From positions 224,001 to 288,000 of the forward strand of contig CBFIDD010000002.1 of NCBI GenBank assembly GCA_965661285.1: a DNA stretch of 64,000 nucleotides, in the 5' to 3' direction. Shown here one piece after another: positions 1 through 50,235 of this stretch (position 1 is the stretch's first letter; each line of letters starts with the position of its first letter). Under the pieces are notes generated by a model. It was not told the origin of the DNA and searched no databases. It saw only the letters and a program-made list of their open reading frames with translations. The DNA is from Poseidonia sp. GTDB lineage: Archaea > Thermoplasmatota > Poseidoniia > Poseidoniales > Poseidoniaceae. Made by a program: the position numbers and the translations under genes.

Positions 1-1052
1 GTAACAACGACATCGTGAAGTTCAACCCCAGAGAGGTTTTCCACTTCAAGTTCAAGGGAAAGAGGGCCGGGATCCTCACCGATGGCGACGGACAAGGAAC
101 GTTCTTGCGAACGGGATGGGTTGGTGTCCAATCGCTCTCGCAGGGTCATCATTTGCCTTCCGCTGACCTTGTAAGACTCGGTGTGCTTCTTGCTCGGTTC
201 GAGTTCGTCCACGGAGACGTGTTCGCCACCAAGGTCGGTTGAACCAATGTTGTCAAGGAGGACATCGATGTCGTAGATGCGGTCGTCTGCCGAGGGGTTG
301 TTCACCGTCAGGGTACCCTTCACGTTCTGCTTGATGATGTTACCATCAGCGTTCAAGGTGGTGGTTTCCACCTCGTGAAGCGTGCCTTCCAGTTTGTCCC
401 CATTTACGGCTTCGACTTCGGCGCGACTTCGAATCTTGGCACCGGCTTGTTCACCGGTCAAGTCGGACGGAGCCAGGTCAGGAACCGGTGCATCCGAGGT
501 ATCACCAAGCGAGAGGGCAGCAAGCGGGTCGGCTGCTGGGGCCTCGGGGGGTGCGGGTGGTGCTGGAGGTGCGGCGAGCGGGTCCATCAACGGGTCGGCG
601 GCCGGTGCTTCGGGCATGGGCGGCATCTCGGGTGGAGCAGGTGGTGCCAGTGGTGCTGCCAAGGGGTCCATCAGCGGGTCGGCGGCCGGTGCTTCGGGCA
701 TGGGTGGCATGGGCGGCATCTCGGGTGCTTCTGGTGGAGCAGGTGGTGCCGGTGGTGCTGCCAAGGGGTCCATCAGCGGGTCGGCGGCCGGTGCTTCGGG
801 CATCGAGGGCATGGGCGGCATCTCGGGCGGTGCTGGTGGAGCGTCGGGCATCGGAGGCATGGGCGGCATACCGGGCGGTGCTGGAGGTGCATCTGGCATC
901 GGAGGCATGGGCGGCATCTCGGGCGGTGCTGGAGGTGCGTCGGGCATCGGAGGCATAGGCGGCATACCGGGCGGTGCTGGCGGGGCTTCGCCTGGAGGCA
1001 TAGGTGGCATTGGTGGTAGGCCAGGAGGCATCGGGGGTTTCTCTTCGCTCAT
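1..1052 (-). CDS. Pro-rich N-terminal protein with C-terminal beta-rich (possibly mu-homology-like) domain; runs off the window edge
   Basis: Hand translation from ATG at 1052: MSEEKPPMPPGLPPMPPMPPGEAPPAPP...KLEGTLHEVETTTLNADGNIIKQNVKGTLTVNNPSADDRIYDIDVLLD...LSLELEVENLSGVELHDVVV. No stop seen in the translated stretches down to position 1. Absent from the ORF track because it has no stop in the window. Confidence 0.85.
   Translation of the reverse strand, partial: MSEEKPPMPPGLPPMPPMPPGEAPPAPPGMPPMPPMPDAPPAPPEMPPMPPMPDAPPAPPGMPPMPPMPDAPPAPPEMPPMPSMPEAPAADPLMDPLAAPPAPPAPPEAPEMPPMPPMPEAPAADPLMDPLAAPLAPPAPPEMPPMPEAPAADPLMDPLAAPPAPPAPPEAPAADPLAALSLGDTSDAPVPDLAPSDLTGEQAGAKIRSRAEVEAVNGDKLEGTLHEVETTTLNADGNIIKQNVKGTLTVNNPSADDRIYDIDVLLDNIGSTDLGGEHVSVDELEPSKKHTESYKVSGRQMMTLRERLDTNPSRSQERSLSVAIGEDPGPLSLELEVENLSGVELHDVVV
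560..1040. repeat. Imperfect coding tandem repeats (PPMPPMPDAPPAPP-type and PAADPLMDP units)
   Basis: Recurrent GGCATCGGAGGCATGGGCGGCAT and GGTGCTGG units; GGTCCATCA(A/G)CGGGTCGGCGGCCGGTGCTTCGGGCAT occurs three times (about 581, 665, 767). Confidence 0.85.
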
Positions 1053-1208
1053 CGTACATTCCTCAGCATCGCTCGGGTGCGATGAGTTCTTGGACACATG
1101 CTGAGCACATAACCATTCTCCAACATTGCGTTGAACGCATCATTTCGGACATGTCCCAACAAACGGGGAGGAAGGAGGTTTCTTGTAGGGTCGGCAGAAC
1201 CGAAGGCC

Positions 1209-4636: not shown

Positions 4637-4709
4637 GCTCGTATAGTGTAGTGGCCCATCATGAAGGACTCTCATTCCTTCGACCCGGGTTCAAATCCCG
4701 GTACGAGCA
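4637..4709 (+). tRNA. tRNA-Glu (CTC)
   Basis: GCTCGTA/TACGAGC acceptor stem, AAGGA-CT-CTC-AT-TCCTT anticodon arm, CCGGG-TTCAAAT-CCCGG T arm; TAAATA box upstream. Confidence 0.96.
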
Positions 4710-4765
4710 CTCCGATCTTACGTACGATTGTACGGACGGAACCATTGAGTTTCCCGGTACGAGCA
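4696..4765 (+). repeat. 70-bp att-spacer-att block, copy 1
   Basis: Identical to 7261-7330: 14-mer, 42-bp spacer, 14-mer. Confidence 0.95.
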
Positions 4766-4918
4766 TCCATCTGACGTCAAAACTTTTGACCTGCGTCAGT
4801 GCACATCAAATACTTTCTTTTATGCTCATTGGACCTCATTTTGATAGCACATTAAGTGCTCTGCTGAATTGTACAGAGATTAGGCCATCATTGAAAACTC
4901 ACAATCCGGCTTAGGACC

Positions 4919-5243
4919 TTGGAAGAATCAGAAGCACGGAGAATCGCTGCTGAAACACAAGGGCACTCAACCCTGAACAAATTCATTCGAACTGTTGTTA
5001 ACTCGGCTATTCTTGATTTTGATGGGAACGGGGATGAATTCGAGGTGCAAACTCAACAAAAATTCGATGAAAAAATGCATCGAATGAAAGGGCAACGTTT
5101 CCGTTCGTTTGATAGAATATGTTGAGTCCCATGACCCATATGAATAGGTTAAATGGGTTGTCGGCGAAACGGGTGACATTGATTGATATGGTCGTTATAC
5201 AATCGTATACTGAGTGCATGAGCAGTCGGTGGAGAGTGTCCAA
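4919..5243 (+). pseudogene. Possible gene remnant in the island
   Basis: Short AT-rich ORF 4919-5125 with protein-like composition and a TTG start; no recognisable family. Confidence 0.25.
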
Positions 5244-5247
5244 ATTT

Positions 5248-6180
5248 TCAGAATTCCCAAGCGAATCCAGTTTTCTCTTCTGAATCCTTCCACAATCGAG
5301 TCATCGTCTCCTTCTCGTAAGCGTGGGCTTCCAACTGATTTTCTGCAACAGGACCAACCCAATCCAATGCTCCTGTAGGTCCGTACAGCGCTCGCTCTTG
5401 CAAGTCATTCGAAGTAGCACACATTAGTTGTGAGTATGCTCCTTTTTTGGCAGATTGCACTATTGGTAGAAGCACCATAATTCCCCAAATAAAACGTGTA
5501 ACCATACTTGCATTCGTCTTAATCAACGATGTTTTGGCAGCTCCTGGATGACAAACGAAGACTTTAGTTTCCTTTTTTGCGAGAGAGATTCTATCTTGTA
5601 ATTCATACGCAAACATCATCAGAGCAAGTTTGCTTTGACTGTAAGCGGTGTTTGAATTATACTTTTTATCCCAATTCATGTCTTCAAAATTGATTGTCTT
5701 CATTCCCATTTTATACCCTAAGCTGGAAACAACAACGATTCTGCCTTGATTTTTTTCGATTGAAGGGAAGAGCATTCCTGCCAACAAAAAGTGTCCGTAA
5801 TGATTTGTTCCTAGCTGTACCTCAAAACCATCAACTGTAAGAGTTCTTTTAGGCGTTTGAGCAATTGCGGCATTACAGATCAATACATCGATCTTTTGCT
5901 TCCTCTCAATCAGCACATTTGCAGCATCTCTTACCGACTCTAAATCTGACAAATCTAACTTTACAAATTTCAAGGGTTGATTTTCTGCAAGTTCGTTGTT
6001 AATCTCCTGCATGATTCGATTGGATTTTTGCTCATTCCTGTTCAACATCGTGACTTCTGCTCCCTTTGCAAGCAGGATTTTTATGGCCTCTAGTCCAATT
6101 CCTGAGCTGGCTCCGGTGATGACGACAGACTTGCCTTCTAGACTTTGAATTAAATCGGGAGTCCATCCACTTGATGCCAT
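5248..6180 (-). CDS. SDR-family oxidoreductase (retinol-dehydrogenase-like subgroup)
   Basis: TGASSGIG, NAA, GTNHYGHFLL, YSQSK, HPG; AT-rich codon usage. Confidence 0.93.
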   Translation of the reverse strand: MASSGWTPDLIQSLEGKSVVITGASSGIGLEAIKILLAKGAEVTMLNRNEQKSNRIMQEINNELAENQPLKFVKLDLSDLESVRDAANVLIERKQKIDVLICNAAIAQTPKRTLTVDGFEVQLGTNHYGHFLLAGMLFPSIEKNQGRIVVVSSLGYKMGMKTINFEDMNWDKKYNSNTAYSQSKLALMMFAYELQDRISLAKKETKVFVCHPGAAKTSLIKTNASMVTRFIWGIMVLLPIVQSAKKGAYSQLMCATSNDLQERALYGPTGALDWVGPVAENQLEAHAYEKETMTRLWKDSEEKTGFAWEF

Positions 6181-6359
6181 AATGCTCCGTCTTTGGGTTA
6201 GTTCATATTGGTTACGGACAATAGGTCAGGCTTCTCTTTTCGGCAAATTCATCATAGAAGATTATCATTGCGAATAAGAATTGAAATAGGTCCATGACAG
6301 GCATTACCCTTTGATTGGTTGCCTCAAAGGTCAATTTTGAAGTCAATCAGATGTGGGTA

Positions 6360-6373
6360 TCCCGGTACGAGCA
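6360..6373 (+). repeat. tRNA-Glu 3'-end direct repeat (att-like)
   Basis: Exact TCCCGGTACGAGCA; the preceding A also matches the tRNA. Confidence 0.93.
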
Positions 6374-6421
6374 TTCTCTATATTAAAAAAATTAAATTTT
6401 ACAGTTCGCTAAACCCATGAC
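6374..6421 (+). promoter_or_regulatory. Cassette-borne AT-rich leader, probable promoter (copy 1)
   Basis: TTCTCTATATTAAAAAAATTAAATTTTACAGTTCGCTAAACCCATGAC is nearly identical to 7331-7379; TATA-like tract upstream of the ATG. Confidence 0.6.
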
Positions 6422-7204
6422 ATGGAATGGCTTGAAAGAGCAGGTTGGCATTACGACAAAGATTCGAATTCAATAGAACAATCAGAATTTACTCACCCTC
6501 TTCCAATGACTATTGTATTTTGTTTCTTTTTTACCCCAATTCCGTTTATGTCCGTTGTGTTTGTAAATGGACCGATCTTTTTTTTGTTTGTGAGCTTAGC
6601 CGTATGTGCGCTCAGTTTGGCTTGCTTATTGGGGTACATCCTCACAATCAAAGGAACTGTCAGGAGAATTTCTCTGCATGACTTATCTTACACGGTGATG
6701 AAGCGAAACAGGCGAACGCTCGAAAATTCCAAGATCAACACCCTCGAATCAACGGATGGATTCATCCACCAGAACCTCGAGGTTATTGTCGTTGAGTATG
6801 AAGTACTCACAGGATCTGAAGGAGGTAGTGGCTACGTTACAACTTACCAGGTACGATTGGTCGAAAAAAGACTGGTCGGAGATGAACGCTACTTCACCCG
6901 TCTTGGAAAACGTTTTTTGAAGGCAGACCAGAGCACTCTGCCTCCAGAACTGCAAGTGGAACCTTGGCGTTTGGTTAATAATCACGGGAATAAACAAATG
7001 AAGTGGAATTATGGAAACGATCCAGCATACGATGTGCAGAGGATGCTGGTCTTGAGGGCGAAAAATAAACAAGATGCATTGGAATTAAGCGACCATTTTC
7101 GAGAATTTTTCATTGAAGGTGGTTGGCAGAAACTCACTGAACAGATTCCTCCTGTGATTTCAGATGAAGCAACCAATGATGGAAACGAACCGTTTTGGGT
7201 ATGA
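6422..7204 (+). CDS. Hypothetical 2-TM membrane protein, paralog 1
   Basis: Two N-terminal hydrophobic helices; soluble domain strongly similar to 7380-8159. Confidence 0.88.
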   Translation: MEWLERAGWHYDKDSNSIEQSEFTHPLPMTIVFCFFFTPIPFMSVVFVNGPIFFLFVSLAVCALSLACLLGYILTIKGTVRRISLHDLSYTVMKRNRRTLENSKINTLESTDGFIHQNLEVIVVEYEVLTGSEGGSGYVTTYQVRLVEKRLVGDERYFTRLGKRFLKADQSTLPPELQVEPWRLVNNHGNKQMKWNYGNDPAYDVQRMLVLRAKNKQDALELSDHFREFFIEGGWQKLTEQIPPVISDEATNDGNEPFWV

Positions 7205-7260
7205 ACTCAAACATTGAGGTCCTACTCAAAGACGCCACACCATGGTATTTGCAGATAGTT

Positions 7261-7330
7261 TCCCGGTACGAGCACTCCGATCTTACGTACGATTGTACGG
7301 ACGGAACCATTGAGTTTCCCGGTACGAGCA
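7261..7330 (+). repeat. 70-bp att-spacer-att block, copy 2
   Basis: Identical to 4696-4765. Confidence 0.95.
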
Positions 7331-7379
7331 TTCTCTATATTGAAAAAAATTAAAATTTACAGTTCGCTAAACTCATGAC
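7331..7379 (+). promoter_or_regulatory. Cassette-borne AT-rich leader, probable promoter (copy 2)
   Basis: Near-identical to 6374-6421. Confidence 0.6.
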
Positions 7380-8159
7380 ATGGATTGGTTGGAGGAAGCG
7401 GGTTGGTGTTACGACCCAGAATCTCATTCAATTGAACAGGTTGAGTACACCAGTCCTAGTTTGGGCCTCTTTCTATTTGTCGTGTTCGCGATTGGAATTT
7501 CGGTCATATTCTTCGAAACTTTATACAGCCCTGATTTTTTGGTTTTTCTTCTTGTTTACGCATCATTGTTGGGTTTGATGGCGCTTGCGGGACTCCACAT
7601 AACAAATGTGGGGTGGGTGAAAAGAATTGCACTATCTGATTTGTCCTACTCTGTCATGAAACGTAACAAGCGAACGCTCGAAAATTCAAAGATTGCTACC
7701 CTCGAATCGACGGATGGATTCACGCATGAGAACCTGGAGGTCATTGTCGTTGAGTATGAACGAAAGAATGAAAGTGAAGGCCCTGCGTACTACACCTTCT
7801 ATCAAGTCCGGTTGGTTGAAAAACGACTGGTTGGAAATGAGAGATACTTCACCCACCTTAAAAAACGTTTCATGGAGGCAGATAAGAGCACGTTGCCCCC
7901 CGAACTGCAAGCGGACGCTTGGGGTTTGGCCTACAACCACGGAAAAATAAGGGAGAAGTTGTATCACGGAAAGAATCCGGCCTACGATGTGCAGAGGATG
8001 TTGGTGTTGAATGCGAAAAACAAAACACATGCACTCGAATTGAGCGAGCGTTTTCGAGAATTTTTCATTGAAGGTGGTTGGAAAGAACTCACTCGACAGC
8101 CCTCACCTGCAATCTCAAGTGATGTTGCCGAGGAGGAAAACCGGCCGTTCTGGCAATGA
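7380..8159 (+). CDS. Hypothetical 2-TM membrane protein, paralog 2
   Basis: Shares blocks RTLENSKI, NLEVIVVEYE, YQVRLVEKRLVG, PAYDVQRMLVL and FREFFIEGGW with paralog 1. Confidence 0.88.
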   Translation: MDWLEEAGWCYDPESHSIEQVEYTSPSLGLFLFVVFAIGISVIFFETLYSPDFLVFLLVYASLLGLMALAGLHITNVGWVKRIALSDLSYSVMKRNKRTLENSKIATLESTDGFTHENLEVIVVEYERKNESEGPAYYTFYQVRLVEKRLVGNERYFTHLKKRFMEADKSTLPPELQADAWGLAYNHGKIREKLYHGKNPAYDVQRMLVLNAKNKTHALELSERFREFFIEGGWKELTRQPSPAISSDVAEEENRPFWQ

Positions 8160-8357
8160 TCTTGACATTGATATGTTGCTCAACAAACACGCACCATGGT
8201 ATTTGCACGTCGCTCATCGGCACGGGGACTATTCTATAGAATGGAATTCACTCATCCTGGTCCATCCATCTATGTTGCACGAAGATGTATCCTGCCTTGG
8301 GATGCGTCAAGCATCTACGGAGGTCTTCTTTATTGGATTGAGCGTTGAGGAGACATC

Positions 8358-8999
8358 ATGCCCGGCCCACTCCGCTCGCTCGTCTATGTCCACACCGCCC
8401 TTCGAAACGAACTCAATCAACTCGCTGCCCTCGCTCACGATGTTGCAGCAGGAGAAAACACGCTTGGAACGCTCAAAGAACGCTTTGACTGGGCAACCTA
8501 TGCCCTCCACTACCACGCTGTTGGTGAAGACGCCGCCCTGTTCCCTGCTGTTGAAGCAAAGCACCCGGGTGTGGCCATGACCTTTGACGATGACCACCGT
8601 ACCGATGACGCACTGGTGGAGGAAATGAAATCCCTCCTCGAGGCAGGAGGCGACGGTGAAACGCTCCAAAGGATTGCACGATGCGCCGACCAATTGGCCG
8701 ACCGCGCCTCCCTCCACATGGACAAGGAAGAGCGGTTGCTCGTCCCCTTCGTTGAGGAGCACTTCGGCATGGAGGAGCAGGGCGCCATTCTTGGCGGCAT
8801 GATGCAGGCGTTCCCTCCTGAATTTATGCTCAAAGGCGTTCCGTGGATTTTCTCGCACCTCGATGAAACCCTCCGCATCTCCTACGCCACCGCCCTCAAG
8901 GGCGCCATGCCACCCGAACCCTTTGGCATGCACATGAACAACGTTGAACAGCAACTCGGACCCGAGGAATGGGCACCCATTGCGGCTGCCATTGCGTGA
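8358..8999 (+). CDS. Hemerythrin (HHE) domain protein
   Basis: VHTALR, HYHAVGEDAALFP, DDH, LHMDKEERLLVP; GAGGAG ribosome-binding motif upstream. Confidence 0.88.
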   Translation: MPGPLRSLVYVHTALRNELNQLAALAHDVAAGENTLGTLKERFDWATYALHYHAVGEDAALFPAVEAKHPGVAMTFDDDHRTDDALVEEMKSLLEAGGDGETLQRIARCADQLADRASLHMDKEERLLVPFVEEHFGMEEQGAILGGMMQAFPPEFMLKGVPWIFSHLDETLRISYATALKGAMPPEPFGMHMNNVEQQLGPEEWAPIAAAIA

Positions 9000-9918: not shown

Positions 9919-10308
9919 TCACGCATAACTGACGGGCATGCCTGCGTCCTTCCAGCCGTTGATGCCGCTTTCCAGTTCCATAAGGTTGGTGAAGCCCATG
10001 TCGAGAAGTGTTTGGGCGGCGTCTTGAGAGCGGTTTCCACTACGGCAGTAGAGCAAAATAAGCGCGTCCTTGTCTTCCGGGAGCTCGTTTTCTCGAGTTT
10101 CCAACTCGGTGTGGGGAATCAAGGTGGCGTTTTCCAAGTGCCCGTCCTGTTCCCACTCAGCCGTGGTTCGAACGTCGAGAAGAAATCCGTCGTTGTCGGC
10201 CTTGATGGCCTCGTCAAAGGCGGTGACATCCACGCGTTCCCACTGTCCATCGTTGGAGATGCAGCCGGACAAGAGCAGGAAGATCAGCAGGGGAAGCCAT
10301 CTTTTCAT
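9919..10308 (-). CDS. Rhodanese-like domain lipoprotein
   Basis: Lipobox-like LLLSGC; LLDVRTTAEW..GH, YCRSGNRS, GINGW. Confidence 0.88.
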   Translation of the reverse strand: MKRWLPLLIFLLLSGCISNDGQWERVDVTAFDEAIKADNDGFLLDVRTTAEWEQDGHLENATLIPHTELETRENELPEDKDALILLYCRSGNRSQDAAQTLLDMGFTNLMELESGINGWKDAGMPVSYA

Positions 10309-10384
10309 GCCCTGCAATTCAAGACCTCGGCACAAATACCTGCCGAGGGTATTCCATCCAAAAACAGGAAAATATTCAAAAAAA

Positions 10385-11392
10385 ATGCAACACATCAACC
10401 TTATCGTGAGGGCTTTCCGACAAATGACTGTCCTTTTCACCATGAGTTGTGTTCTTTTCTGCATACCTGTTACGGGACAGGCCGTGAACTACAGCGTAGA
10501 AGTCGAATGTGACGATGAGACAATCGAGGTAGAATCGGAGCCGGGAAACATTGTCACTGGGTACTTGGACTGCACGTTCACCAACCCTTCAATCCATCTT
10601 GAAAAAATTCAGTACCAGGTAAACTCCGACTATGGTGGGGTGACATTGATTCCTAGACAGGGAACTCTTGATTTGAATGGTGGTGAATCTAAAATTCTCA
10701 CAATTGGAATAACACCCAACGAGGGCCTGTGGACAGGAAATTATGAGTTAACTGTTTATGGAACGGTGGTAGAAGTATGGGGTGGACCGCCACCATCCTA
10801 CGAAACAGATATGGATACAGGGACCTATTACGTATCACCGTATTTGGACTTCGATCCGGTGAGTTGCTGGTCATCCTTTTCAGACGACACATACAGTTTA
10901 GTTGATGTTGGGTGTTGGGTAGAAAACCGGGGAAACACGCATGATGAATACTCGTTGGTTGTTCCTCAATCAGCCATAGATGCAATGGAGTCATTCGGGT
11001 TTAAATCGACACCAGCACTCTCGCAATCGGTTGATTGGTTCACTTATGACATACACCATCCTATGATTGAAGGTGGGTTTGTGTTTGAAGGAGACACATC
11101 AGAATGGAGAGACAATGACACCCTCTATTCGCTGAATGAGGTGATATTGGTGGAATTGCACAGCCAAGGTGCTGAGTCCGAGGGAAGCCCGCTGATCGAA
11201 CAAGCCAGTGTTCCAATTCAGCTGGCCATAGAAAAAGAAATCGTTGAGGACCAATATGCCCCCGAGGGTTTCCTTTTCGCACCCGGGATGATCGAACTGC
11301 TTGTTGTCCTCTTGGTAGCGGTCGCAGTGGCACGGCCTCATCAGGGAGATGAGAACGGTGACATTCGCAACCTGCTCACAGACCGTACGTGA
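10385..11392 (+). CDS. Secreted/surface protein with C-terminal anchor (choice-of-anchor T / PGF-CTERM-like)
   Basis: Signal peptide, VEVECD..LDCTFTNPS N-domain, acidic beta-rich body, APG plus TM near the C-terminus. Confidence 0.7.
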   Translation: MQHINLIVRAFRQMTVLFTMSCVLFCIPVTGQAVNYSVEVECDDETIEVESEPGNIVTGYLDCTFTNPSIHLEKIQYQVNSDYGGVTLIPRQGTLDLNGGESKILTIGITPNEGLWTGNYELTVYGTVVEVWGGPPPSYETDMDTGTYYVSPYLDFDPVSCWSSFSDDTYSLVDVGCWVENRGNTHDEYSLVVPQSAIDAMESFGFKSTPALSQSVDWFTYDIHHPMIEGGFVFEGDTSEWRDNDTLYSLNEVILVELHSQGAESEGSPLIEQASVPIQLAIEKEIVEDQYAPEGFLFAPGMIELLVVLLVAVAVARPHQGDENGDIRNLLTDRT

Positions 11393-11542
11393 TGGTGTGC
11401 TCGAGGCACATCTTCCACATCTCTCGACCCGTCTGGCTTTCGTAAGCATCAAAGAACAGACAACCGTTATGGAACGCCCAGAAACTTCGGGCAGGGTTGG
11501 AGGATGGGTCGGCCGTGGTGTCGTTCGGGTCGCCGTTCAGCA

Positions 11543-12436: not shown

Positions 12437-13660
12437 TCATTCGTCTCCGACCACATCATCGGGCATGGATGGTGCCTCGGCCACGACCACGGCGAACCAA
12501 GCGACGGCGGCTGCCAGAACGATGGTCCCAAACGTAGCGTGAACGCTCCACCCAAACGGCAAGACATGGAGGTTGAGGCCTTCGGTCCAATAGAGCACAT
12601 TGGATATCGATTGCGCCTCAATCCACCACCTGGCCATGAAGATCACCACTTGCGTGGCGGCCATGAGCGGAACGTAAACCTTCATCCCCCATCGACGGAA
12701 GACAGGGAGAAAGAGTTCTGCGGCCACCGCCAACAACAAACTCATTTGAAACACGGTTTGGCTGAACTCAGTATACACCCACATACTGACGGCTTGAATG
12801 CAAAAGAGGACGAACATTGAGCCACGTGCAGGTTTCCAGCGCTTGAGAAACATGATGAGCGCCCCCGATAACAAGAGCGCCTGGAGCCAAAAACTCTGCA
12901 GTCCAAATTCAAGAGCGCCGCTGTAGTTCTCATTGTTGCAAAAGTCAGTGAAACCGTTGTAGCAGAATCCCGATAGGTCCCTGAACCAAAGGTTGGTGTA
13001 GCGGAAGATCAGTTGGACGACACTCCATGCTGCCCCGATGCCGAACACCAAAAGGAGTTGCGAGCGCAAGCCGGCACTGCCACTTTTTGAATCCGGCCAA
13101 GCCGACCAAACCGGTGCGGTCACCGACATCATCAATCCGATAAAGAGGCCGATGTGGGTCGGCGAAAGAAGAATATCGGTGTTGCTCTCAACCCCCAAGG
13201 TTTCGTGCCAAATCATATCCCCAAAGCCGGAAATGCCGAACACAATGATGCCGTAAACACCGGGTTTGTGCTGTGGAGCAAGGCCACCCAACACCTTGAA
13301 CGGGTGTCGAAGCATTTCCTGCACGCCGCCTTCCGGAAGAATGGCGTAGGTGATGTAGAAACCGTAAGCGGTCGCACCCGAGTACCAAATGGCATGCCAC
13401 GGTGTGAAAAAGGAGTCATCGACCACACCGGAAATATGAGCAAAGGCATCGGTCAACAGACCACCCAAACACCAGAGGCCCAGCACCAGCACGACTCCAT
13501 CGTAGCGAGGAGCGCCGACTCGAGGAAGCCCACCCCAACGACGGTGAAGGCCGTAAGCAACCAGGCCTGCTAGGGCCAGGGTTCCAAAGAAGAGTGTCGG
13601 AAAACCGAACAGGAGATTGGGGTCCTCCGGCGGTGGGAAATCATGGGCTGGGTGGTGCAT
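12437..13660 (-). CDS. Multi-pass membrane protein of unknown function
   Basis: Many TM segments; DAFAH, FFTPWH, DMIWH and LLSPTH His-containing motifs. Confidence 0.8.
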   Translation of the reverse strand: MHHPAHDFPPPEDPNLLFGFPTLFFGTLALAGLVAYGLHRRWGGLPRVGAPRYDGVVLVLGLWCLGGLLTDAFAHISGVVDDSFFTPWHAIWYSGATAYGFYITYAILPEGGVQEMLRHPFKVLGGLAPQHKPGVYGIIVFGISGFGDMIWHETLGVESNTDILLSPTHIGLFIGLMMSVTAPVWSAWPDSKSGSAGLRSQLLLVFGIGAAWSVVQLIFRYTNLWFRDLSGFCYNGFTDFCNNENYSGALEFGLQSFWLQALLLSGALIMFLKRWKPARGSMFVLFCIQAVSMWVYTEFSQTVFQMSLLLAVAAELFLPVFRRWGMKVYVPLMAATQVVIFMARWWIEAQSISNVLYWTEGLNLHVLPFGWSVHATFGTIVLAAAVAWFAVVVAEAPSMPDDVVGDE

Positions 13661-13785
13661 GTGTGCGACATTCTTCAGAGAAGTTTATGTCTTTCCTCCC
13701 ACTTGTGATACCTGTTTTCAACTCCAACCGCCCAGCGAAGACAGCGACAAGAAGAATATACAAACTCCGAGGACCTCCAAAATCT

Positions 13786-16700
13786 ATGGGGCCTCGGCGG
13801 AGATGGATGTGGAGCGTGATGCTGGTCGCGCTCGTGGCCTCCGTCCCGTTAACACCACTGCTCGCTGTCACGGAGGATATCGATGTGTTGCAGGAGCAGA
13901 CGAACGAACAACACCGTACCGTTCTGGTCACACAGCACTTTTCTCCCTCCAACGGATTTACTTACACCAACCTAACACACTCACCGTCCACCGGTCTGGT
14001 CAAACTCGAGCGACCCGATATCTCCTGGTCTCCTTCCTCAGGTTTGGGGTTGGTGGCAGCCCGTACGGGTGCCTGTTCGGCATATCTACCGTCAACCAAT
14101 GAGGTTTTTCTTATCGGAGGACGCATTGACCCGGACCCAACACAAACAGGTGAGGAAGAAAATACGAAGACCGTTGAAATATTTGATGCGGTGAACAGGA
14201 CGTGGGATTCTGCGTTTGAAGAACTCAAGGAACCGCAACAGTATCACGGCTGTGCCGTCGTTGGCGACACCATCTATGCCGTAGGCGACCATCACCCGTT
14301 CTCATCTCCAGCGGCTGAATCACGAGGTTTAGTCCAGGTGTACGATGCCGGAACGGGCAACTGGAGCTACGGAACGAGCATGCCCGGCAACCAGTCGGTG
14401 GGTCTTGCGGGCGTGACGAGTCTCAACGGGATGGTCTATGTGGCCGGAGGCGTCTCGGAGAAAGACCGCTCGGATTCAACCGACCGCTTGCTGCGCTATG
14501 ATCCTGTCAACGACACGTGGACGCAGCTCGCCAGCATGAACAATCGGCGACACTCCTTTGATCTCGTTGCCTTCAGAGGAAAACTCATCGCCTATGGTGG
14601 CGTTGCGGTGTTTTTTGACCCGATTGCAAACGCCACCGTTGAGAAAGAAACAAACCTGACCGAAGCCTATGACCCCTTAACGAACACCTGGGCACAACTC
14701 CCCAACGCCACAAACGTGTTCTCGGCATATGCCGCCACGGTGCTCAACGATGAGATCATCATCCACGGAGGGTACAAGCGCTCCGGTTGGTCGGGAACGA
14801 CCAACGACAAGACCTACGGATACGACCCGTTCACCAACGACTGGAACACGAGAGCAACCCTCGCCAGCGGGATGTACGATTCAACGATAGCGTTGGCTAA
14901 CGACACGCTGGTCTATGCCGGCGGGGATGCCAGTAATCGTCGCTTTGGGACATGGGGAAGTCAATACTTAGCCGGTGATGAATTCCACATCGGCCCAACC
15001 TTCAGAGAAGGGATGCTTTCATCCAGCATCCAAGATTTACGAGCAGTTCAAGACGGTTCAGCCAGCTTGCTTTGGCTTCGGTTTGATGCGGACGAACCTG
15101 CTGGGACCGAGATCGGATTGCAATATCGAACAGCCATCTCACAAGAGCTCATCGCCTCCGCACAATGGCAACCCACAACAGCCCCAACGAGCGCGTACTT
15201 CGAGAAGGGAAACCTGTCATTACGAGACGTTCCCGAGGACAGTACGTTCATCCAATATCGCGTAAAATACGCAACAACCCGTATGACAGCGTGGGAAACC
15301 CCCACGCTGCTGAGCATAGGCATAGGGGCCGACAGCGCGAGCTTCACATCCGCGCCGCCTCCCTCCATGCAGCCAACCTCCTCGCCCGTCAGCATCGTCA
15401 CCTCTCATCATGCCGCAACCCAAACCGGCACATACGTTTTGGCGATGCACCCCACCGATGCAAGCGGGAGTTATGATGAAGATTCAAACTGGTTGACGCT
15501 GGCATGGAACAGCACCACATCGAGCATGAGCATTGATGACCCGGATGGACTCCTTTTCAATCAACAAGCCAGTGTGACCCCCGGACACAATACGCCAACT
15601 GGACAAACCATGAACTGGTCGTTCTCTCTTGACGGAGCACTGCCAACAAATCACCTCAAATTCAAAACGAGTACATTCGCAGAACGCAACACGACCTCTA
15701 TTCACCCAGCCGTCACCTCCATCGACAGGGATGTCACTGTTTCGCTGGAACACGTGACCGCCGAGATGTCAAGCCAAGGCGATGCATCCGTCGAAACCGG
15801 CGAAGTCTTACCTGGGAACACAACCCTCAATGTGACCATCGACCATCGCTTCACGAACAGTGGCTTGCGTCTTTTGGGTGGTGCCATCGAGTATCGCATC
15901 CACCTGGACATGGAAACCTATGACGAGGATGAATTCGGCGAGCGTATTTGGTCTAACCTCACCTTGCCATGGTCAATGCTGTCCGCTGGGCAACTCGAGC
16001 ACGCAATCATCAACGCCCCAATCGACCTTTCGGGGGAACTGCACCTCTGGTTTGAAGCTCGGACCAGTGAAGATTGGTATCTCAAGGTCGACAGCCAACC
16101 GCTTACCTTCATCATCAACGGCGAGGGGCCGACCTTGCTGAGCGTCACACCCGACCTTGACCACTACATCAATGAGGACGAACACCGCACGGTTACGTTC
16201 GCCTTCCACGACGTTGGCGGCTTTTCTAACGAGACGCTGTCTGCGTACACGTGGATCGAAGCACGAGATGACGGAACCAACGGCGGAGCAAGCGATGGCG
16301 TTCCGCAACGTGAAGAGTACCGGTCTGCGCTGTTCTACACGCATCAAGACGGGAACCGTTGGACCGTGAATGTCACCGTCAACGACACCATTAACGACGA
16401 CCACCAGTGGGGACGGGTGCTCCTCGAAGGCACGGACCTGGCTGGCTATGGTGTCCCGACGACCACAGCCGCCGACGGTCATGCCAGGTGGGAATCACGA
16501 ACCCCAACGAAAGGGGCCTTGCTCGAGTTCGGGCCAAGCACGAACCTGTTGAACGGTACGATGATGCGACTCGAACCGTCCAAAGAGGTCGGTTGGCGTG
16601 TTTCGGTCTCCGATGCAAACGGGCTGGAAGACCTCAATGAGGTGCGTATTGAACTGGGCAATGACGACCGTTTGGGTGTGAAATACACGACGTTAGAGAA

Positions 16701-18477
16701 CACCTGTTCCACGCTCGACGAGCGGCTCTTGCTGCTCCCGACCGGTTGCGATGTTCGCATTGAAGGGGATGTGCTCACCGTTGAATTCACCGCCACCGTG
16801 CAGTGGAGCCTCACGATGTCCGGCCTTGCACAAGGTGAACTCGACCTGTTCGTGAAGGATTACGACGGAACGCAGCGGTTCGATTTCACCGAAGCTTGGG
16901 TGCTCGAGCGAGAAATGAGCATCGATGTTGAACGCCTTGTTGACGAGCAGGGTCCGGTTCAACAGGCCTTGACCACGGATTCGGTGGTGATGGCCGGCGA
17001 CGAACTCGATTTGACCGCACGCGTTACCTACCGTTCCAGTGATACACCCTACACCGGCGATTTGAGGCTGCGTTGGGACGGACTTTTGCAGGGCGAATCG
17101 TGGCGTGGCGGAGCCACGGTCTCGATTCTTGACGGGGTGCTGCAATCCGGCATCCCAACACCAGAACGCTCAGGGCTGGTCCAAGACATGACCATCACGC
17201 TCTGGGACCCGTTGGAAACCGAGATGCTCAGCACCTACGACCTGCCCGTGTTCAAATTGGATGCTATGGCACCCGAAATCCTGCCATCCGCCATCACCGA
17301 CACCATTTCTCGCTATCACTTGGACGACGTCGAAATTGGCGTAAACATCGCCGAAGAGCAGGGCTGGTCCAACGCGTTGACGCTGACCTGCCAAATCCGC
17401 TCCCTCGCCCAATCATGGGATCCCGTAACCAGCGTCCGAAACGCCACAACGGTGTTTGACGGGAAAACGATGTTCAGTTTCCGATTTGACTTCAGTGGCC
17501 TGGGTGATCCCTCAACGCTCTCGGAACAAGCCGACCTCAACTGCTGGGCCAACGGCGCCGACGATGCGGGCTGGGACCTGCTATCAACAACCGGCAACTC
17601 GGAACTCGACCCTTGGCTCGAAGCACCCCTCAACAACATCGGCCCGGATTTGGCCCTTGAGAATGTCGAACTTTCTGGAGAACTCAAAGCCAACGAAAAA
17701 ATCAGACTTTCCTTCTTCGTCACCAACGGTGGAGAAACCCTTGAATCACCGTTCAATGCGACCATCGAGTTGGTCCAAGGCGACCAAAGGGAATTGATTG
17801 GGCGAGAGGTGTTCTACTCCATGGACGCCAACACGGCCAAATCCGTGAAGCGATCGTTCACGGCTCCCGAAGGAGCGTGGACCGTTGAAATCACCGTCGA
17901 CAGCGAGGGCGTGGTTTGGGAAATCGATGAAACCAACAACGTCTGGAACCGGTCCGTCAGCGATGCCTCGTCTGGCTTTGGTGCCGCAACCGTCCTCCTC
18001 GGCGGAGGCGGTGTTCTTGCGCTGGCCGGCGCTGCTGTTCTGTTGCGACGACGGGGTGGAGGTGGCGTTGAGGAAGCCAAGGTCGTGGCTGCCCTTCAGG
18101 CGACGGCTGATGCGAAAGAAGCCAAGAGCACCCCCAAACCTCCAGCCAAACCACCGACCAAACGACGGGGTCCACCGGGTGGAAAAATTGCAACAACGAA
18201 GAGCAAGTCACCCTCACGTAGTCCCCCGAAGGGACCGCCCAAAACCAAGCAAACCGAACCCTCACCGCAGGAACGTGCAGCCATGCACATGGCGGCGCTC
18301 GGGGTACCAGAACCTTCGCCAGCATCGACCGAGGAGCGCGTGGAAGATTATTCCAAACTTCCAGGCGGCGGGGAGTACGAATACACGCCCGAAGGCACGT
18401 ATTACGTTGGCCAAAGCTGCGGACGTTGGGTGCTGAACGAGGACAAATCCTTCACCAAAGTCAGCGATGAGGTTTGA
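13786..18477 (+). CDS. Giant surface protein: Kelch propeller, Ig-like repeats, CARDB-like domain, TM, Pro/Lys-rich tail
   Basis: Signal peptide; repeated GG...YDP..DTW Kelch motifs; PDLALENV...VWEIDETNNVW; TM followed by RRRG. Confidence 0.9.
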   Translation: MGPRRRWMWSVMLVALVASVPLTPLLAVTEDIDVLQEQTNEQHRTVLVTQHFSPSNGFTYTNLTHSPSTGLVKLERPDISWSPSSGLGLVAARTGACSAYLPSTNEVFLIGGRIDPDPTQTGEEENTKTVEIFDAVNRTWDSAFEELKEPQQYHGCAVVGDTIYAVGDHHPFSSPAAESRGLVQVYDAGTGNWSYGTSMPGNQSVGLAGVTSLNGMVYVAGGVSEKDRSDSTDRLLRYDPVNDTWTQLASMNNRRHSFDLVAFRGKLIAYGGVAVFFDPIANATVEKETNLTEAYDPLTNTWAQLPNATNVFSAYAATVLNDEIIIHGGYKRSGWSGTTNDKTYGYDPFTNDWNTRATLASGMYDSTIALANDTLVYAGGDASNRRFGTWGSQYLAGDEFHIGPTFREGMLSSSIQDLRAVQDGSASLLWLRFDADEPAGTEIGLQYRTAISQELIASAQWQPTTAPTSAYFEKGNLSLRDVPEDSTFIQYRVKYATTRMTAWETPTLLSIGIGADSASFTSAPPPSMQPTSSPVSIVTSHHAATQTGTYVLAMHPTDASGSYDEDSNWLTLAWNSTTSSMSIDDPDGLLFNQQASVTPGHNTPTGQTMNWSFSLDGALPTNHLKFKTSTFAERNTTSIHPAVTSIDRDVTVSLEHVTAEMSSQGDASVETGEVLPGNTTLNVTIDHRFTNSGLRLLGGAIEYRIHLDMETYDEDEFGERIWSNLTLPWSMLSAGQLEHAIINAPIDLSGELHLWFEARTSEDWYLKVDSQPLTFIINGEGPTLLSVTPDLDHYINEDEHRTVTFAFHDVGGFSNETLSAYTWIEARDDGTNGGASDGVPQREEYRSALFYTHQDGNRWTVNVTVNDTINDDHQWGRVLLEGTDLAGYGVPTTTAADGHARWESRTPTKGALLEFGPSTNLLNGTMMRLEPSKEVGWRVSVSDANGLEDLNEVRIELGNDDRLGVKYTTLENTCSTLDERLLLLPTGCDVRIEGDVLTVEFTATVQWSLTMSGLAQGELDLFVKDYDGTQRFDFTEAWVLEREMSIDVERLVDEQGPVQQALTTDSVVMAGDELDLTARVTYRSSDTPYTGDLRLRWDGLLQGESWRGGATVSILDGVLQSGIPTPERSGLVQDMTITLWDPLETEMLSTYDLPVFKLDAMAPEILPSAITDTISRYHLDDVEIGVNIAEEQGWSNALTLTCQIRSLAQSWDPVTSVRNATTVFDGKTMFSFRFDFSGLGDPSTLSEQADLNCWANGADDAGWDLLSTTGNSELDPWLEAPLNNIGPDLALENVELSGELKANEKIRLSFFVTNGGETLESPFNATIELVQGDQRELIGREVFYSMDANTAKSVKRSFTAPEGAWTVEITVDSEGVVWEIDETNNVWNRSVSDASSGFGAATVLLGGGGVLALAGAAVLLRRRGGGGVEEAKVVAALQATADAKEAKSTPKPPAKPPTKRRGPPGGKIATTKSKSPSRSPPKGPPKTKQTEPSPQERAAMHMAALGVPEPSPASTEERVEDYSKLPGGGEYEYTPEGTYYVGQSCGRWVLNEDKSFTKVSDEV

Positions 18478-45141: not shown

Positions 45142-48100
45142 TCACTGGTAGGGGTTTTCGCCAGGAGAGGAAGCGTCCCGAGGCGCACCGTAGGGCCCTG
45201 CTGCTTCTTGTGCAGGGGCTGGTTGCCCACGGGCTGGAGGCGTCAAGCTGGGGGGTTGTTTGGTGATGGGTACATCCTCCCTGCGCAGGCCAACGACCAG
45301 AAGGCCGATGAGGCCTGCCGTCAGGAGGCCGACCACCGTGAGCAAAACGGGATTGATGGTACTGATGGTGCCGAGGACACCATCCGAACGGGGCTCTTCA
45401 ACCAACACCGTGGCCGATTGGGAATTTGGGCCGTTGACAATGCTCAATTCCAGCCACTGAGAACCATCCCGCCCAGGTTTCCAGAGGTACTGGTAAATCA
45501 TCTGTTCGCCGGATTGGATGTCTACAACCCTCGCATCCAATCGAGTTCTGGCACCGCTGGATTCAACCTGCTCAAGCACCATGTTGGCTTCACCGTCGGC
45601 CAGACCGCTGTTGGTGAGGAGGGCAGAAACCTCCACCAGATCACCTTGATGGATATCGCTTGAAGGCTTCAAGTCAACATCCGAGAGTTCGTAAACAGGC
45701 ACGCGTTGTTCGAGATTCCAAACCCGCAGCGGCGCATCGAGATCGTTGAAAATGGAATCGATGGTGAGACCGGCTTCATCAGCACCCGTCACCCAAATGC
45801 GGAGTTCAACCGCCTTGGTTCTGAAGGCGGGGAGCATGAGCGCATCCAAGTCCAACGAACAGCGCACAGGTATGGAATCCCCGTTGGTTCGCTCACCAAG
45901 GATCTCAAGCGGCAGGCTTCCGTTGTCAAAGACATACGAATTCAAACCGAGCCCGGCTTCGTTGAGTGACCAATGCAGTCGAAGCGAGTCCGCATCCAGG
46001 CGAGCGTTTTCATCAAGGCGAAGTTCAAACTGAAGACCCCGCCACATGTCTTCTGAAAGCATGTTGTTGAAACCCGGACGGTCAACCGCAGCCACGCGAG
46101 GAGCTACGTTGTCAACAATGAACCAAACAAAGGCAGCATCATCTCCTCTATAGACTGCACCGTTCGGAGCATCTCGGAGGTCGCCAAACAAACCGTAGGT
46201 ACCATCGAGCAGTGGAGCGAGGATACTGCCCGAGAAACTGCCGTTCACGACCTTGGCCTCGAGGTTGTTTTCACCAAGGGTCAACTCAACATCGAGGGAT
46301 TGACTCGGTCGTGTGCCCGTACGGTGCCAAACGAGGTCGCCGTGAACGTCAAAGGTGGTGCGGGGCTGAACCCAATAGCCCAAATCATCCTCTGATTCGC
46401 CTGGCAGTGCAATCCGGATGGATTCGGCATCAATCGAAAGTTCGCCGGAGAAGCGCCACCGGAGGGGCTCGAGCATGAACCGGTTTGATTGACCAGACTG
46501 GTCAAGAAGGGAAATTTCGGGAATACGCTCAACGGATGTGTCGGGGTCGTACCCCCACTCAACGGAGAAATTAACGACAAATTCACCGTTTCTTGAAAAC
46601 AAATCGTCGGCCTCAGCAGGAACGAGGGTGCACGATTCAACCTCCACATACGGGTCCAACGAGGCACAGATATTCGTGCTTTGATTCCATTGTATCACCG
46701 ACGGATTTGGAGTGTTCGCCGCTAATTTGAGTTCAACCTCGGCCAAATCAAAAATGCCGTTTTGTTCAAAGACGGGAACCCGAAGTTGGTACCATTCGTG
46801 AGGATGGAGCCAAGGCGATACCTCCCCGTTGGGCCATCCAAGCGATGAGGCCCCAAGTGAGGGTGCGCCGTTGGCGTTAAGTTGCACGTGGAACATCGGT
46901 TCGGAGAGCAGCCCTCCACCCTCCATGATGTGCCCGGCGCTGTCGGCGATCTCCACCCAACCGACAAAATAGTCCCCTTCCTCGGCGGCGCTTGAGTCCA
47001 GCGTCAAGCTGTACTCACCCATCAGCGTGGAGAGGTTGTCGGGCAGTTCCAATTCGGATTTGACAACTTCATCGGCGTCCATAACGCCGTTGCCGTTCGT
47101 ATCGTCCTTCCATGATTGCCACAGGTAGACGTCTGCATGGGTTGGCAAATGGGGTCGATCAGCGATCGTGAAGACCAATGGCGTCCTTGGACTGATGTCC
47201 CGGCTGTCAAACCGCTCGACCGAACGGTCAATGAGGGTAGGAGGAACGTTGTCGAACAAGAAGGTCAGGCTTGAAGGTAGGTTGCTCACCACATCTTGTC
47301 CTCGCAAAGGCACCACCTCAACGCCCAAATCGAGCGAGGGCCGTCCTTGCGGAACCGTGTAAGGGAACAAGGCCACCCCGTGGTTGAGCAACGTAGTGGT
47401 GGCGTATTCATTCCCGTCAACAAGGAAACGGACAAGGGCTTGGCCTGACCGCGGCACGCCTTCCGTGGTGTTTTCGAAGCCGAGAACCACCTCGAGGTGA
47501 ACCACCTCGCCGCCCCGAAGGTATGGATAGGCTGCATCCGAACGGATATCGCCACTGGAGAGTACGGACCAGGATTTGACCTCAATGTCGTTTTCAACCC
47601 CTTGGTCGAACCCGAGACCGAAGACCTGAGAGACGGGGAGCAGCGGTCCAGAAGACGAAATCAAACTGACCGAAAGCGTTGCAGACGATTCATCATCCCA
47701 TCCGTCCGGGAATCGGAAATGATGGCGCAACTCGAGGAACTCTCCCGAGCCCACAGCGGAAATCGAACCCGCCGTACCCTCATCAAACCACAACAGTGCG
47801 GTTCCAGAGGCCGTGCATGCTGACAGCGAAGTGGACGTGATGGGCAGCGAAGCGATTGGACATCGGAGTTTTGATTGCTGCTGGGAGCCTGAGAGGTGGA
47901 GTTCAACCTGCCAGCCGGATTGTGTAGCATGGCTGAGCGCATCGGAGATGCCAATTGGTGAGAAATCGAAGGTTCCGACGGATTCAATCCAATGCATGCC
48001 GGGGACGAAGGTGTCGCTCACGTTGTGCACCTCCAGGTCAATCGCCTCTACAGATGCCTGGGACTGGACATCGTTCACCGTGACATAAACCGAACCTGTG

Positions 48101-50136: not shown

Positions 50137-50235
50137 GTTTGGACTACGCACGCTTCAAGGTCTAAAGGGTTGGGACTTTTCGCCATGGACCACTCAGGTG
50201 AGAAAGTCAATAGATGGGGTGGACCAGGAATGGGC

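Follow-up and report, generated by a model that had tools for sequence, protein, structure and literature searches.

Small gene units bounded by a tRNA-Glu attachment core in Poseidoniaceae archaea and their probable movement by integrases of sibling elements

We analyzed a stretch of 64,000 nucleotides from Poseidonia sp. (GenBank assembly GCA_965661285.1, contig CBFIDD010000002.1, positions 224,001 to 288,000), here called the window, in which an AT-rich island follows the tRNA-Glu(CTC) gene and is divided into units by exact repeats of the last 14 nt of that gene. We propose that this island was formed by serial site-specific integration at the tRNA-Glu core, followed by decay to units that lack an integrase, are flanked by attachment (att) sites and are probably still moved by the integrases of sibling elements; we give this reading a probability of roughly 0.68. 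Related archaea carry different mixtures of units at the same spot, so the locus probably serves them as a common docking site for the exchange of genes. In Marine Group II archaea, an abundant and uncultured group, a single tRNA gene that gathers small gene units would give genes a concrete path from one genus to another, and one that can be tested.

In the proposed mechanism, the 3' end of tRNA-Glu(CTC) would be the attachment core common to a family of archaeal integrative elements of 4.6-11 kb. At least three integrase clades (A, B and C) would use one 14-bp core, each with its own arm motif, an inverted repeat whose copies lie about 12-14 nt upstream and 4-6 nt downstream of the core. Successive integrations would stack elements head to tail and regenerate the core at each junction, and internal deletions would strip the backbone, leaving the cargo gene or genes between two armed cores, or a bare 42-bp arm, in the manner of cis-mobilizable elements (CIMEs). 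The integrases of incoming sibling elements, perhaps together with a winged-helix protein, may then excise single units or blocks of units and re-insert them. Even units that lack an integrase are probably still moved in this way; the basis for such movement in trans is indirect, namely that the identity of units lies far above that of their flanks and that unit boundaries fall at cores.

The core repeat and the island in the window

The 14-mer that forms the 3' end of tRNA-Glu(CTC) has exact matches at 4696, 4752, 6360, 7261 and 7317, all on the + strand. These five copies compare with 0.01 expected, none of 100 shuffles reached five, and the whole genome (1.98 Mb in 8 contigs) holds no others. 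The recurrence had been pointed out in an initial annotation, made from the sequence of the window, and it is exact at every position given there. GC content is 0.37-0.47 across 4700-8200 and 0.55-0.61 in the flanks, and a 71-nt module made of core, 42 bp and core at 4696-4766 is 100% identical to 7261-7331. The copies divide the island as that annotation had also proposed: a spacer of 42 bp comes first, then a unit of 1.6 kb that holds a short-chain dehydrogenase/reductase (SDR) gene, a 0.9-kb membrane-protein unit, the 42-bp spacer again and a second membrane-protein unit. The features are listed below with the method or evidence in brackets; orf~176 is the gene of a ~176-aa protein, ORF stands for open reading frame, and the arm classes and IntC-type elements are described in the next section.

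4637..4710 (+): tRNA-Glu(CTC) gene, with core copy 1, the putative attB/attL core, at 4696-4709 (ARAGORN, pattern search)
4710..4751 (+): 'empty unit' of 42 bp, a class-B P-arm without cargo (100% identical to 7275-7316; resembles class-B arms preceding cores in relatives)
4752..4765 (+): core copy 2 (pattern search)
4766..5230 (+): IntC-type backbone remnant with P' arm, first codons of orf~176 and deletion joint (blastn, motif scan)
4772-4779 (+): TGACGTCA palindrome in the P' arm of the SDR unit (motif scan)
4919-5125 (+): ORF holding the first codons of the orf~176 gene (blastn against L186)
5248..6180 (-): short-chain dehydrogenase/reductase gene, cargo of the SDR unit (Pfam adh_short, 1.4e-31)
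6337..6359 (+): degenerate class-C P-arm that closes the SDR unit (motif scan; L174 match; class C terminates IntC-type elements)
6360..6373 (+): core copy 3 (pattern search)
6374..7260 (+): membrane-protein unit A, with TCTATA-type P' side, gene at 6422-7204 and class-A P-arm at 7239-7260 (ORFs, motif scan)
7261..7274 (+): core copy 4 (pattern search)
7275..7316 (+): second copy of the empty class-B unit, 42 bp (identity with 4710-4751)
7317..7330 (+): core copy 5 (pattern search)
7331..8228 (+): membrane-protein unit B, with gene at 7380-8159, class-A arm remnant at 8193-8207 and decayed arm end and core at 8208-8228
8358..8999 (+): hemerythrin gene just past the last, decayed core, with host-like GC (Pfam hemerythrin, 3.8e-14)

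Each of the larger units holds one intact gene, as had been claimed: the SDR gene at 5248-6180 and the membrane-protein genes at 6422-7204 and 7380-8159. The two membrane proteins, of 260 aa in unit A and 259 aa in unit B, are encoded by paralogous genes with 78-82% DNA identity. Neither matches a Pfam family, and an Atlas search with the membrane protein gave a 'YcxB-like' lead at 0.90, without a family, from which we assign no function. Unit B closes with the first 15 nt of the arm motif that precedes core 4, followed by a diverged stretch of 21 nt (8208-8228) at the position expected for the rest of the arm and the core. The 47 + 7 ORFs of the window gave no match to a recombinase or transposase family of Pfam, in agreement with the earlier statement that the 64 kb hold no integrase or transposase. 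PF00589 is matched once in the genome, on another contig, by a Xer-like gene that shares 27% identity with the integrase of the elements discussed in the next section.

A TCTATAG palindrome, which starts many class-A units, lies at 8229-8241, directly after the decayed last core and ahead of the hemerythrin gene of host GC. The hemerythrin gene family forms an att-bounded unit in two relatives (L045 and L056), which together with this palindrome suggests that the array may once have reached further.

Arm classes, integrases and the origin of the units

Of 249 genomes of the family, 138, from 5 of its 12 genera, contain the 14-mer, and 46 carry 2 to 9 copies (counted from the table of matches). 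Where there are several, they lie on one strand with a spacing of 0.06-10 kb, and many contigs end at the motif. In a sample of the order the 14-mer hardly occurs outside this family: 111 of its 199 genomes have it, whereas the counts for the two remaining families are 3 of 199 and 1 of 2. We compared 41 loci, 40 of them fetched from relatives. The genes upstream of the tRNA are conserved (a GPN-type ATPase, an aspartate/ornithine carbamoyltransferase-family gene, a UbiA prenyltransferase and DUF3860), whereas everything downstream of tRNA-Glu varies among loci.

The sequence just before cores other than that of the tRNA is not random and falls into three arm classes. In class A the 12-nt palindrome ATACCATGGTAT precedes the core by about 12 nt; class B has GTCCGGAC or CCGTAAG-like motifs, and class C has TTGACGTCAA. 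Among 51 unit ends, 31 were of class A, 12 of class B and 2 of class C, and 6 were unclassified, several of these resembling a degenerate class B. By its motifs the 42-bp spacer of the window is itself a class-B arm without cargo. The unit ends are linear arm motifs with palindromes of 8-12 nt, and the reconstructed attP sites follow one plan in all classes: inverted repeats frame the 14-nt core, at a distance of 12-14 nt on its upstream side and of 4-6 nt on its downstream side. These arms are putative protein-binding sites. A TCTATA-type P' start was present in 15 of the 31 class-A units; the two membrane-protein units of the window have such a start and class-A ends.

Strong homologues of the integrase were found in 7 of the 249 family genomes. 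Six of them adjoin a tRNA-Glu gene (four with anticodon CTC, two with TTC), and the contig of the seventh begins inside the element and ends in a class-C arm. The integrase-bearing unit of locus L043 is 6.1 kb long; its class-A palindrome begins 4 nt downstream of the tRNA core, and an arm of class A closes it. This unit carries a pair of genes for a PLD-domain protein and an SNF2 helicase (L043:6448-9583). A profile built from four integrases retrieved 118 relatives from metagenomes, of which 80 were kept; the elements are described here where their sequence context was available. Integrases of the IntA clade are 75-99% identical to that of L043; their elements, of 5.7-6.4 kb, have the class-A palindrome (inverted repeat A, IR-A) after the core and a class-A end (5 of 5 metagenome elements and genome G061). 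Those of the IntC clade (36-39% identity) are accompanied by TGACGTCA after the core and by a class-C end in 6 of 6 elements and in genome G088, with element sizes of 4653 nt (three elements), 5374, 7611 and 11456 nt. The IntB groups (39-41% identity) have CTTACGG after the core, a class-B-like end in 4 of 5 cases and a size of 5.7-7.2 kb. In a maximum-likelihood tree, obtained by a quick search and with many near-copies among its rows, all 12 A-labelled and all 14 C-labelled integrases fell each into one clade (Shimodaira-Hasegawa approximate likelihood ratio test, SH-aLRT, 100), the 9 B-labelled integrases formed three basal groups, and no clade mixed labels. Judged from these sequences, arm class tracks integrase clade. 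The recurrent 14-mers had been interpreted as the att cores of tyrosine-integrase elements that target tRNA-Glu, an interpretation supported by these cognate integrases on sibling elements at the same core elsewhere.

The backbone of the elements is the same in the three clades: a ~176-aa protein of putative coiled-coil and winged-helix type, whose gene overlaps the start of the integrase gene, an integrase of 313-325 aa and a protein of ~270 aa. The ~176-aa and ~270-aa proteins are homologous across A, B and C elements, with 22-31% identity, and belong to no Pfam family. The integrase aligns with the structures of XerA and XerD, the closest by sequence being XerA (5hxy, 3.8e-9); its R, HxxR and Y residues are retained, and a conserved 'RGD' stands in place of the 'GH' of Xer. 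As with archaeal integrases of the pNOB8 type, which are non-partitioning, the integrase gene is intact after integration, here at about 0.5-2.9 kb from the core. The structure model of the ~176-aa protein (predicted local distance difference test, pLDDT, 86.8) has long helices and a C-terminal domain that weakly resembles a winged helix (best PDB match with an E value of 7.6e-3, none reaching 1e-3), and this protein may bind the arm palindromes. The model of the ~270-aa protein has a mean pLDDT of 58.6.

A search for a tyrosine recombinase beside the 14-mer, suggested in the initial annotation, was successful in relatives and metagenomes, but not in the window or in the rest of its genome, nor in viral contigs. 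A PF00589 match occurs in 221 of the 249 family genomes and corresponds to a universal Xer-like gene; 29 genomes have two or more, the genome of the window has one, and most array-bearing genomes carry just the universal gene. In the viral contig collection the integrase profile retrieved just 4 relatives, all of them distant (29-35% identity). Other distant relatives adjoin tRNA-Glu(TTC), tRNA-Gln, tRNA-Ala, tRNA-Leu(CAG) and tRNA-Leu(CAA) in metagenomes, and are also found in other archaeal phyla; the closest relatives in the named genome collection are labelled 'Candidatus Poseidoniaceae archaeon' or 'Methanobacteriota archaeon'. A class-B integrase was also sought among the extra PF00589 matches of 10 genomes, where 14 non-Xer matches lay near tRNA-Ala(TGC), tRNA-Arg(TCT) or no tRNA, and none at the tRNA-Glu core. 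We considered the core as a Xer-type site (a 6-nt spacer TCCCGG between two 10-nt half-sites), with 5 of 10 positions matching by eye, and did not adopt this. In L079, L096 and L101 (G036:C37), an IntA-type integrase beside a tRNA-Glu with a one-mismatch core is split into two overlapping frames (621-1322 and 1315-1578) and is probably a frameshifted, decaying copy. Three metagenome contigs carry the same 4653-nt IntC-type element behind a class-B arm (L179:7000-11653, L180:5755-10408 and L181:4553-9206), and tandem 56-nt class-B modules also follow an IntB-type element in L157.

The SDR unit of the window illustrates the decay of such an element. By blastn, window 4752-5071 corresponds to L186 76-394 (82.5%), a match that runs from the core through the P' arm into the initial codons of the ~176-aa protein gene; window 5059-5230 corresponds to L186 2472-2644 (85.5%), and window 6305-6382 to L174 5413-5491, a class-C end (92%). 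L186 395-2471, about 2.08 kb that hold the integrase, is absent from the window. Because both ends match IntC-type elements and these ~2.08 kb with the integrase are missing, the sequence comparison identifies the SDR unit as a deletion derivative, that is, a decayed IntC-type element. It has lost the integration genes and kept both att sites, as in the definition of a CIME.

Unit content, breakpoints and competing explanations

Between exact cores, the 41 loci contained 49 units free of N, with a median length of 1893 nt and a range of 56-10488 nt. With a crude ORF call (at least 70 aa), 25 units had one ORF, 4 had none, 9 had two and 11 had three or more, the last number in part because some genes are fragmented. 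A Pfam scan of 104 of the 142 ORF-cluster representatives (the remaining 38 lay outside arrays or in the window) found exactly one integrase, that of L043 (PF00589, 5.6e-19). The cargo in relatives includes RCC1-repeat giants, coiled-coil/beta-propeller giants, pentapeptide-repeat proteins, hemerythrin, GAF and GST proteins, an SMR transporter, a C5-methylase with restriction endonucleases and a PLD/SNF2 helicase pair. Unit genes lie on either strand (SDR and RCC1-repeat genes on the minus strand, membrane-protein and hemerythrin genes on the plus strand). Unit families recur at differing array positions with differing neighbours, and the family of the membrane-protein units of the window (c9) is present in L055, L056, L058 and L075. 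One unit of defence type, with a C5 cytosine methylase and Eco47II-like and TdeIII-like endonucleases, is 98.9% identical between two genera (L052:532-3696 and L062:3362-5427).

When the arrays were compared with one another by blastn, 86 high-scoring segment pairs of at least 300 nt linked different genomes, and 21 of these had a boundary within 12 nt of a core in both genomes, whereas randomly placed cores gave 0.012 such pairs, with a maximum of 1 in 500 trials. The comparison across relatives that the initial annotation had called for shows that unit content and order vary across the family, with breakpoints at the 14-mer. The identity of single units and of their upstream flanks was as follows.

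Hemerythrin unit, L045/L056 (two genera): unit 99.5% over 917 nt, upstream flank 70.3%
Pentapeptide unit, L054/L056: unit 97.6%, upstream flank 71.7%
Membrane-protein unit (family of the window), L055/L056: unit 95.7%, upstream flank 75.3%
Unit c10, L043/L073: unit 97.2%, upstream flank 73.4%
Unit c8, L041/L047: unit 93.5%, upstream flank 79.4%
Unnamed unit, L041/L062: unit 90.2%, upstream flank 73.0%

These identities indicate that units without an integrase have spread recently between genera. Contigs of four other marine metagenomes, compared with the window at a likeness threshold of 90%, also break at cores, with differing continuations after the core at 7274-7277, and in one run the tRNA core is joined straight to the SDR unit, skipping the 42-bp spacer. 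Because most of these joints have sides shorter than 30 nt and the likeness is 90%, they may stem from other organisms, and we take them as hints. Contig depths were not used as evidence, being a single figure per contig summed over organisms; in run X3 the depth of the SDR unit and of the first membrane-protein unit was above that of the flanks, and the second membrane-protein unit was without cover.

Several observations weigh against continued movement of the units by sibling integrases. The IR-A motif stands on the P' side in just 2 of the 31 class-A units, and a TCTATA start was seen in none of the sampled integrase elements, which casts doubt on the excision of class-A units by IntA. Some units have arms of two classes (the GAF unit starts with the class-C inverted repeat, IR-C, and ends in class B), and some contain fragmented genes (L039 and L064). 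Mixed arms and fragmented genes fit passive decay, and units with mixed arms would also be expected if neighbours were reshuffled by deletion or recombination between any two identical cores. The integrase tree counts for less on account of its quick search and its near-copies. Patterns of arm plus core, whether of class A, B or C, gave 0 matches in viral contigs. A terminal-repeat test among the 80 metagenome loci revealed no circular contig, and no conserved 'empty site' sequence follows the tRNA in single-core genomes. A lone joint that goes back (one run, side of 36, likeness of 90), in which the end of the first membrane-protein unit leads via a core into the beginning of the SDR unit, could equally be a circle junction, another unit order or another organism.

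A bolder reading, which we regard as possible but hold only tentatively, is that the single-gene units without an integrase form an open cassette pool shared by the Poseidoniaceae community. The arms would serve as a class-specific 'address' for helper elements that supply integrase and winged-helix protein in trans, and the units with a TCTATA start and a class-A end would be dedicated cassettes and not wrecks. If true, archaea would have a functional counterpart of the integron that is anchored at a tRNA gene and works on double-stranded DNA.

The array could alternatively be a passive graveyard, in which autonomous elements integrated serially and decayed in place, and the units are immobile relics, spread by vertical descent or by transfer at a time when they still belonged to intact elements. 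The origin of the SDR unit by deletion suits this explanation, as do the mixed arms and fragmented genes, the inverted repeat missing from the P' side of most class-A units, and the failure to see circles or empty sites. However, single-gene units that lack an integrase are 95-99.5% identical between genera whose flanks share 70-75%, the homology of these near-identical units stops at cores beyond which the neighbours differ, and the same unit families occupy different array positions. We regard immobile relics as an unlikely explanation, one that nevertheless fares better than those that follow.

Homologous recombination might also exchange units, with the host using the tRNA, the 71-nt modules and the arms as anchors and no site-specific recombinase taking part. 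Most genomes are without an element integrase, and arms plus core provide 35-70 nt of common sequence at many junctions, as this would require. On the other hand, breakpoints fall at the 14-mer even where the arm classes on either side differ, integrase clades co-vary with arm classes at the tRNA-Glu site, and the flanks of donor and recipient are just ~70% identical, all of which makes such exchange an improbable source of the arrays compared with site-specific integration and decay.

The initial annotation had described the array as polarised and integron-like, and neither term is supported. A true analogue of the integron would be a dedicated cassette system: a chromosomal or helper integrase would take up promoterless single-gene cassettes at a polarised point of insertion, recognising them by attC-like sites that fold. 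The single gene in 25 of 49 units and the conserved signals at unit ends recall this arrangement, as does the coherent class with a TCTATA-type start and a class-A end (15 of the 31 class-A units), never seen with an integrase. However, there is no resident integrase, the genes lie on both strands, and at least one unit, that of the SDR gene, is a decayed element. Furthermore, three junctions of the window folded as DNA on both strands gave z values of -0.92 to +1.45 against shuffles, so that no attC-like fold was detected in them. Polarity is not supported, because integrase-bearing elements also sit behind internal cores, not belonging to the tRNA. Since no integrase is resident, the junctions fold no better than shuffles and the genes face both ways, we conclude that the array is not an integron, and we give very little weight to a true analogue.

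Misassembly, with contigs mis-joined at the repeated tRNA fragment, can practically be dismissed: although short-read contigs often break at the core and the 71-nt module exceeds common k-mers, the same architecture recurs in several dozen assemblies made independently, some of them genomes in just 1-10 contigs (G052, G064 and G072), and in metagenome contigs, and the unit arms are consistent.

Related systems and further observations

The closest precedent is the accretion of CIMEs in the ICESt1/ICESt3-type islands of Streptococcus thermophilus. According to the account given in PMC5704250, which cites Pavlovic 2004 and Bellanger 2011, an element at a tRNA 3' end loses its integration genes and keeps attL and attR; later elements integrate at the regenerated site and produce tandem arrays, and units without an integrase can be moved by the integrase of a related element (PMC5704250). 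Our arrays agree with this account in that core repeats from a tRNA 3' end bound each unit and integrase-less units stand in tandem. They differ from the streptococcal CIMEs as described there in their archaeal host, in the smaller size of the units (median 1.9 kb, down to 56 bp), in the use of one 14-bp core by at least three integrase clades and in the recurrence of arrays across several genera; no conjugation genes were seen, and mobilisation is here deduced from sequence.

The tycheposons of Prochlorococcus are also comparable. In the preprint's description they are tyrosine-recombinase elements with cargo at tRNA genes, with neighbours separated just by partial tRNA copies, and newer elements push older ones inward, so that remnants and extra partial tRNAs lie deeper in the island (bioRxiv 10.1101/2020.12.28.424599). 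Both systems belong to marine picoplankton with small genomes, and in both the elements are rare per genome while islands are common. By that description tycheposons have bacterial hosts and carry replication modules, and their recombinases form a clade of their own; the backbone here consists of a putative winged-helix protein, a Xer-like integrase and a 270-aa protein, and single-gene units without an integrase dominate. The locus may be regarded as an archaeal counterpart to the tycheposon islands.

The arrays resemble those of integrons in that mostly single-gene units end in a recombination signal and vary in content between relatives. They differ in that no intI lies beside the array, the repeat is a tRNA fragment, there is no common orientation or promoter, and the units include decayed integrase elements. 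Ghaly et al. are said to have described integrons in archaeal metagenome-assembled genomes in 2022.

In archaea, tyrosine-recombinase elements can form arrays that re-use one att site (PMC6563490, citing Krupovic and Bamford 2008). The elements studied here share with such tRNA-integrated elements the tyrosine recombinase and the tandem stacking. The arrays described in that source consist of a few large proviruses or plasmids per site, unlike the family-wide, single-gene, integrase-less units with class-specific arms found here. A preprint describes Charybdis elements whose clade P, of ~4.6 kb, is inserted beside tRNA genes of Poseidoniales genomes, where every integrated copy has an integrase; their hallmarks are given as a conserved Gp3, double beta-sandwich proteins and a circular genome of ~4.6 kb (bioRxiv 10.1101/2025.08.03.668216). 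Three of our IntC-type elements measure 4653 nt from core to core and might be Charybdis elements as described there, a lead that comes from the agreement in size and host group.

We found no literature account of a tRNA-Glu array in Marine Group II, or of a mechanism for flexible gene content at this locus, in a search that left most subscription papers and preprint supplements outside its coverage. The features that we regard as new are the very small units, mostly with a single gene and no integrase, the smallest being bare arms of 42 bp; the one 14-bp core common to three arm and integrase classes; and the recurrence of the arrays across genera of an abundant uncultured archaeal family. 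The defined core and the three arm and integrase pairs could become genetic tools for archaea, and the locus could serve as a marker for strain-level population genomics.

The same pattern was found at other tRNA genes of this genome, where the initial annotation had suggested looking for it. There are 2-3 tandem modules of arm plus core per site: tRNA-Leu(CAG) at C5:158912-159132 (-) has tandem 3'-end copies with periods of 67 and 70 nt, tRNA-Leu(CAA) at C1:479964-480112 (-) with periods of 67 and 67 nt, and tRNA-Val(CAC) at C6:117350-117612 (-) with periods of 95 and 95 nt, and a spacer type is common to both Leu sites. The phenomenon is therefore not confined to tRNA-Glu.

Elsewhere in the window, an open-ended ORF at 3-1097 (-) has long proline-rich PPMPP/APPAPP repeats and a GC content of 0.69-0.72. 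A second GC dip at 10200-11400 (0.45-0.49) coincides with a 440-aa ORF (10070-11392) without a Pfam family and has no core copies nearby. Two giant ORFs are also present, one of 1669 aa at 45142-50151 (-) without a Pfam family, and one of 1627 aa at 13594-18477 (+) with Kelch repeats and a CARDB domain.

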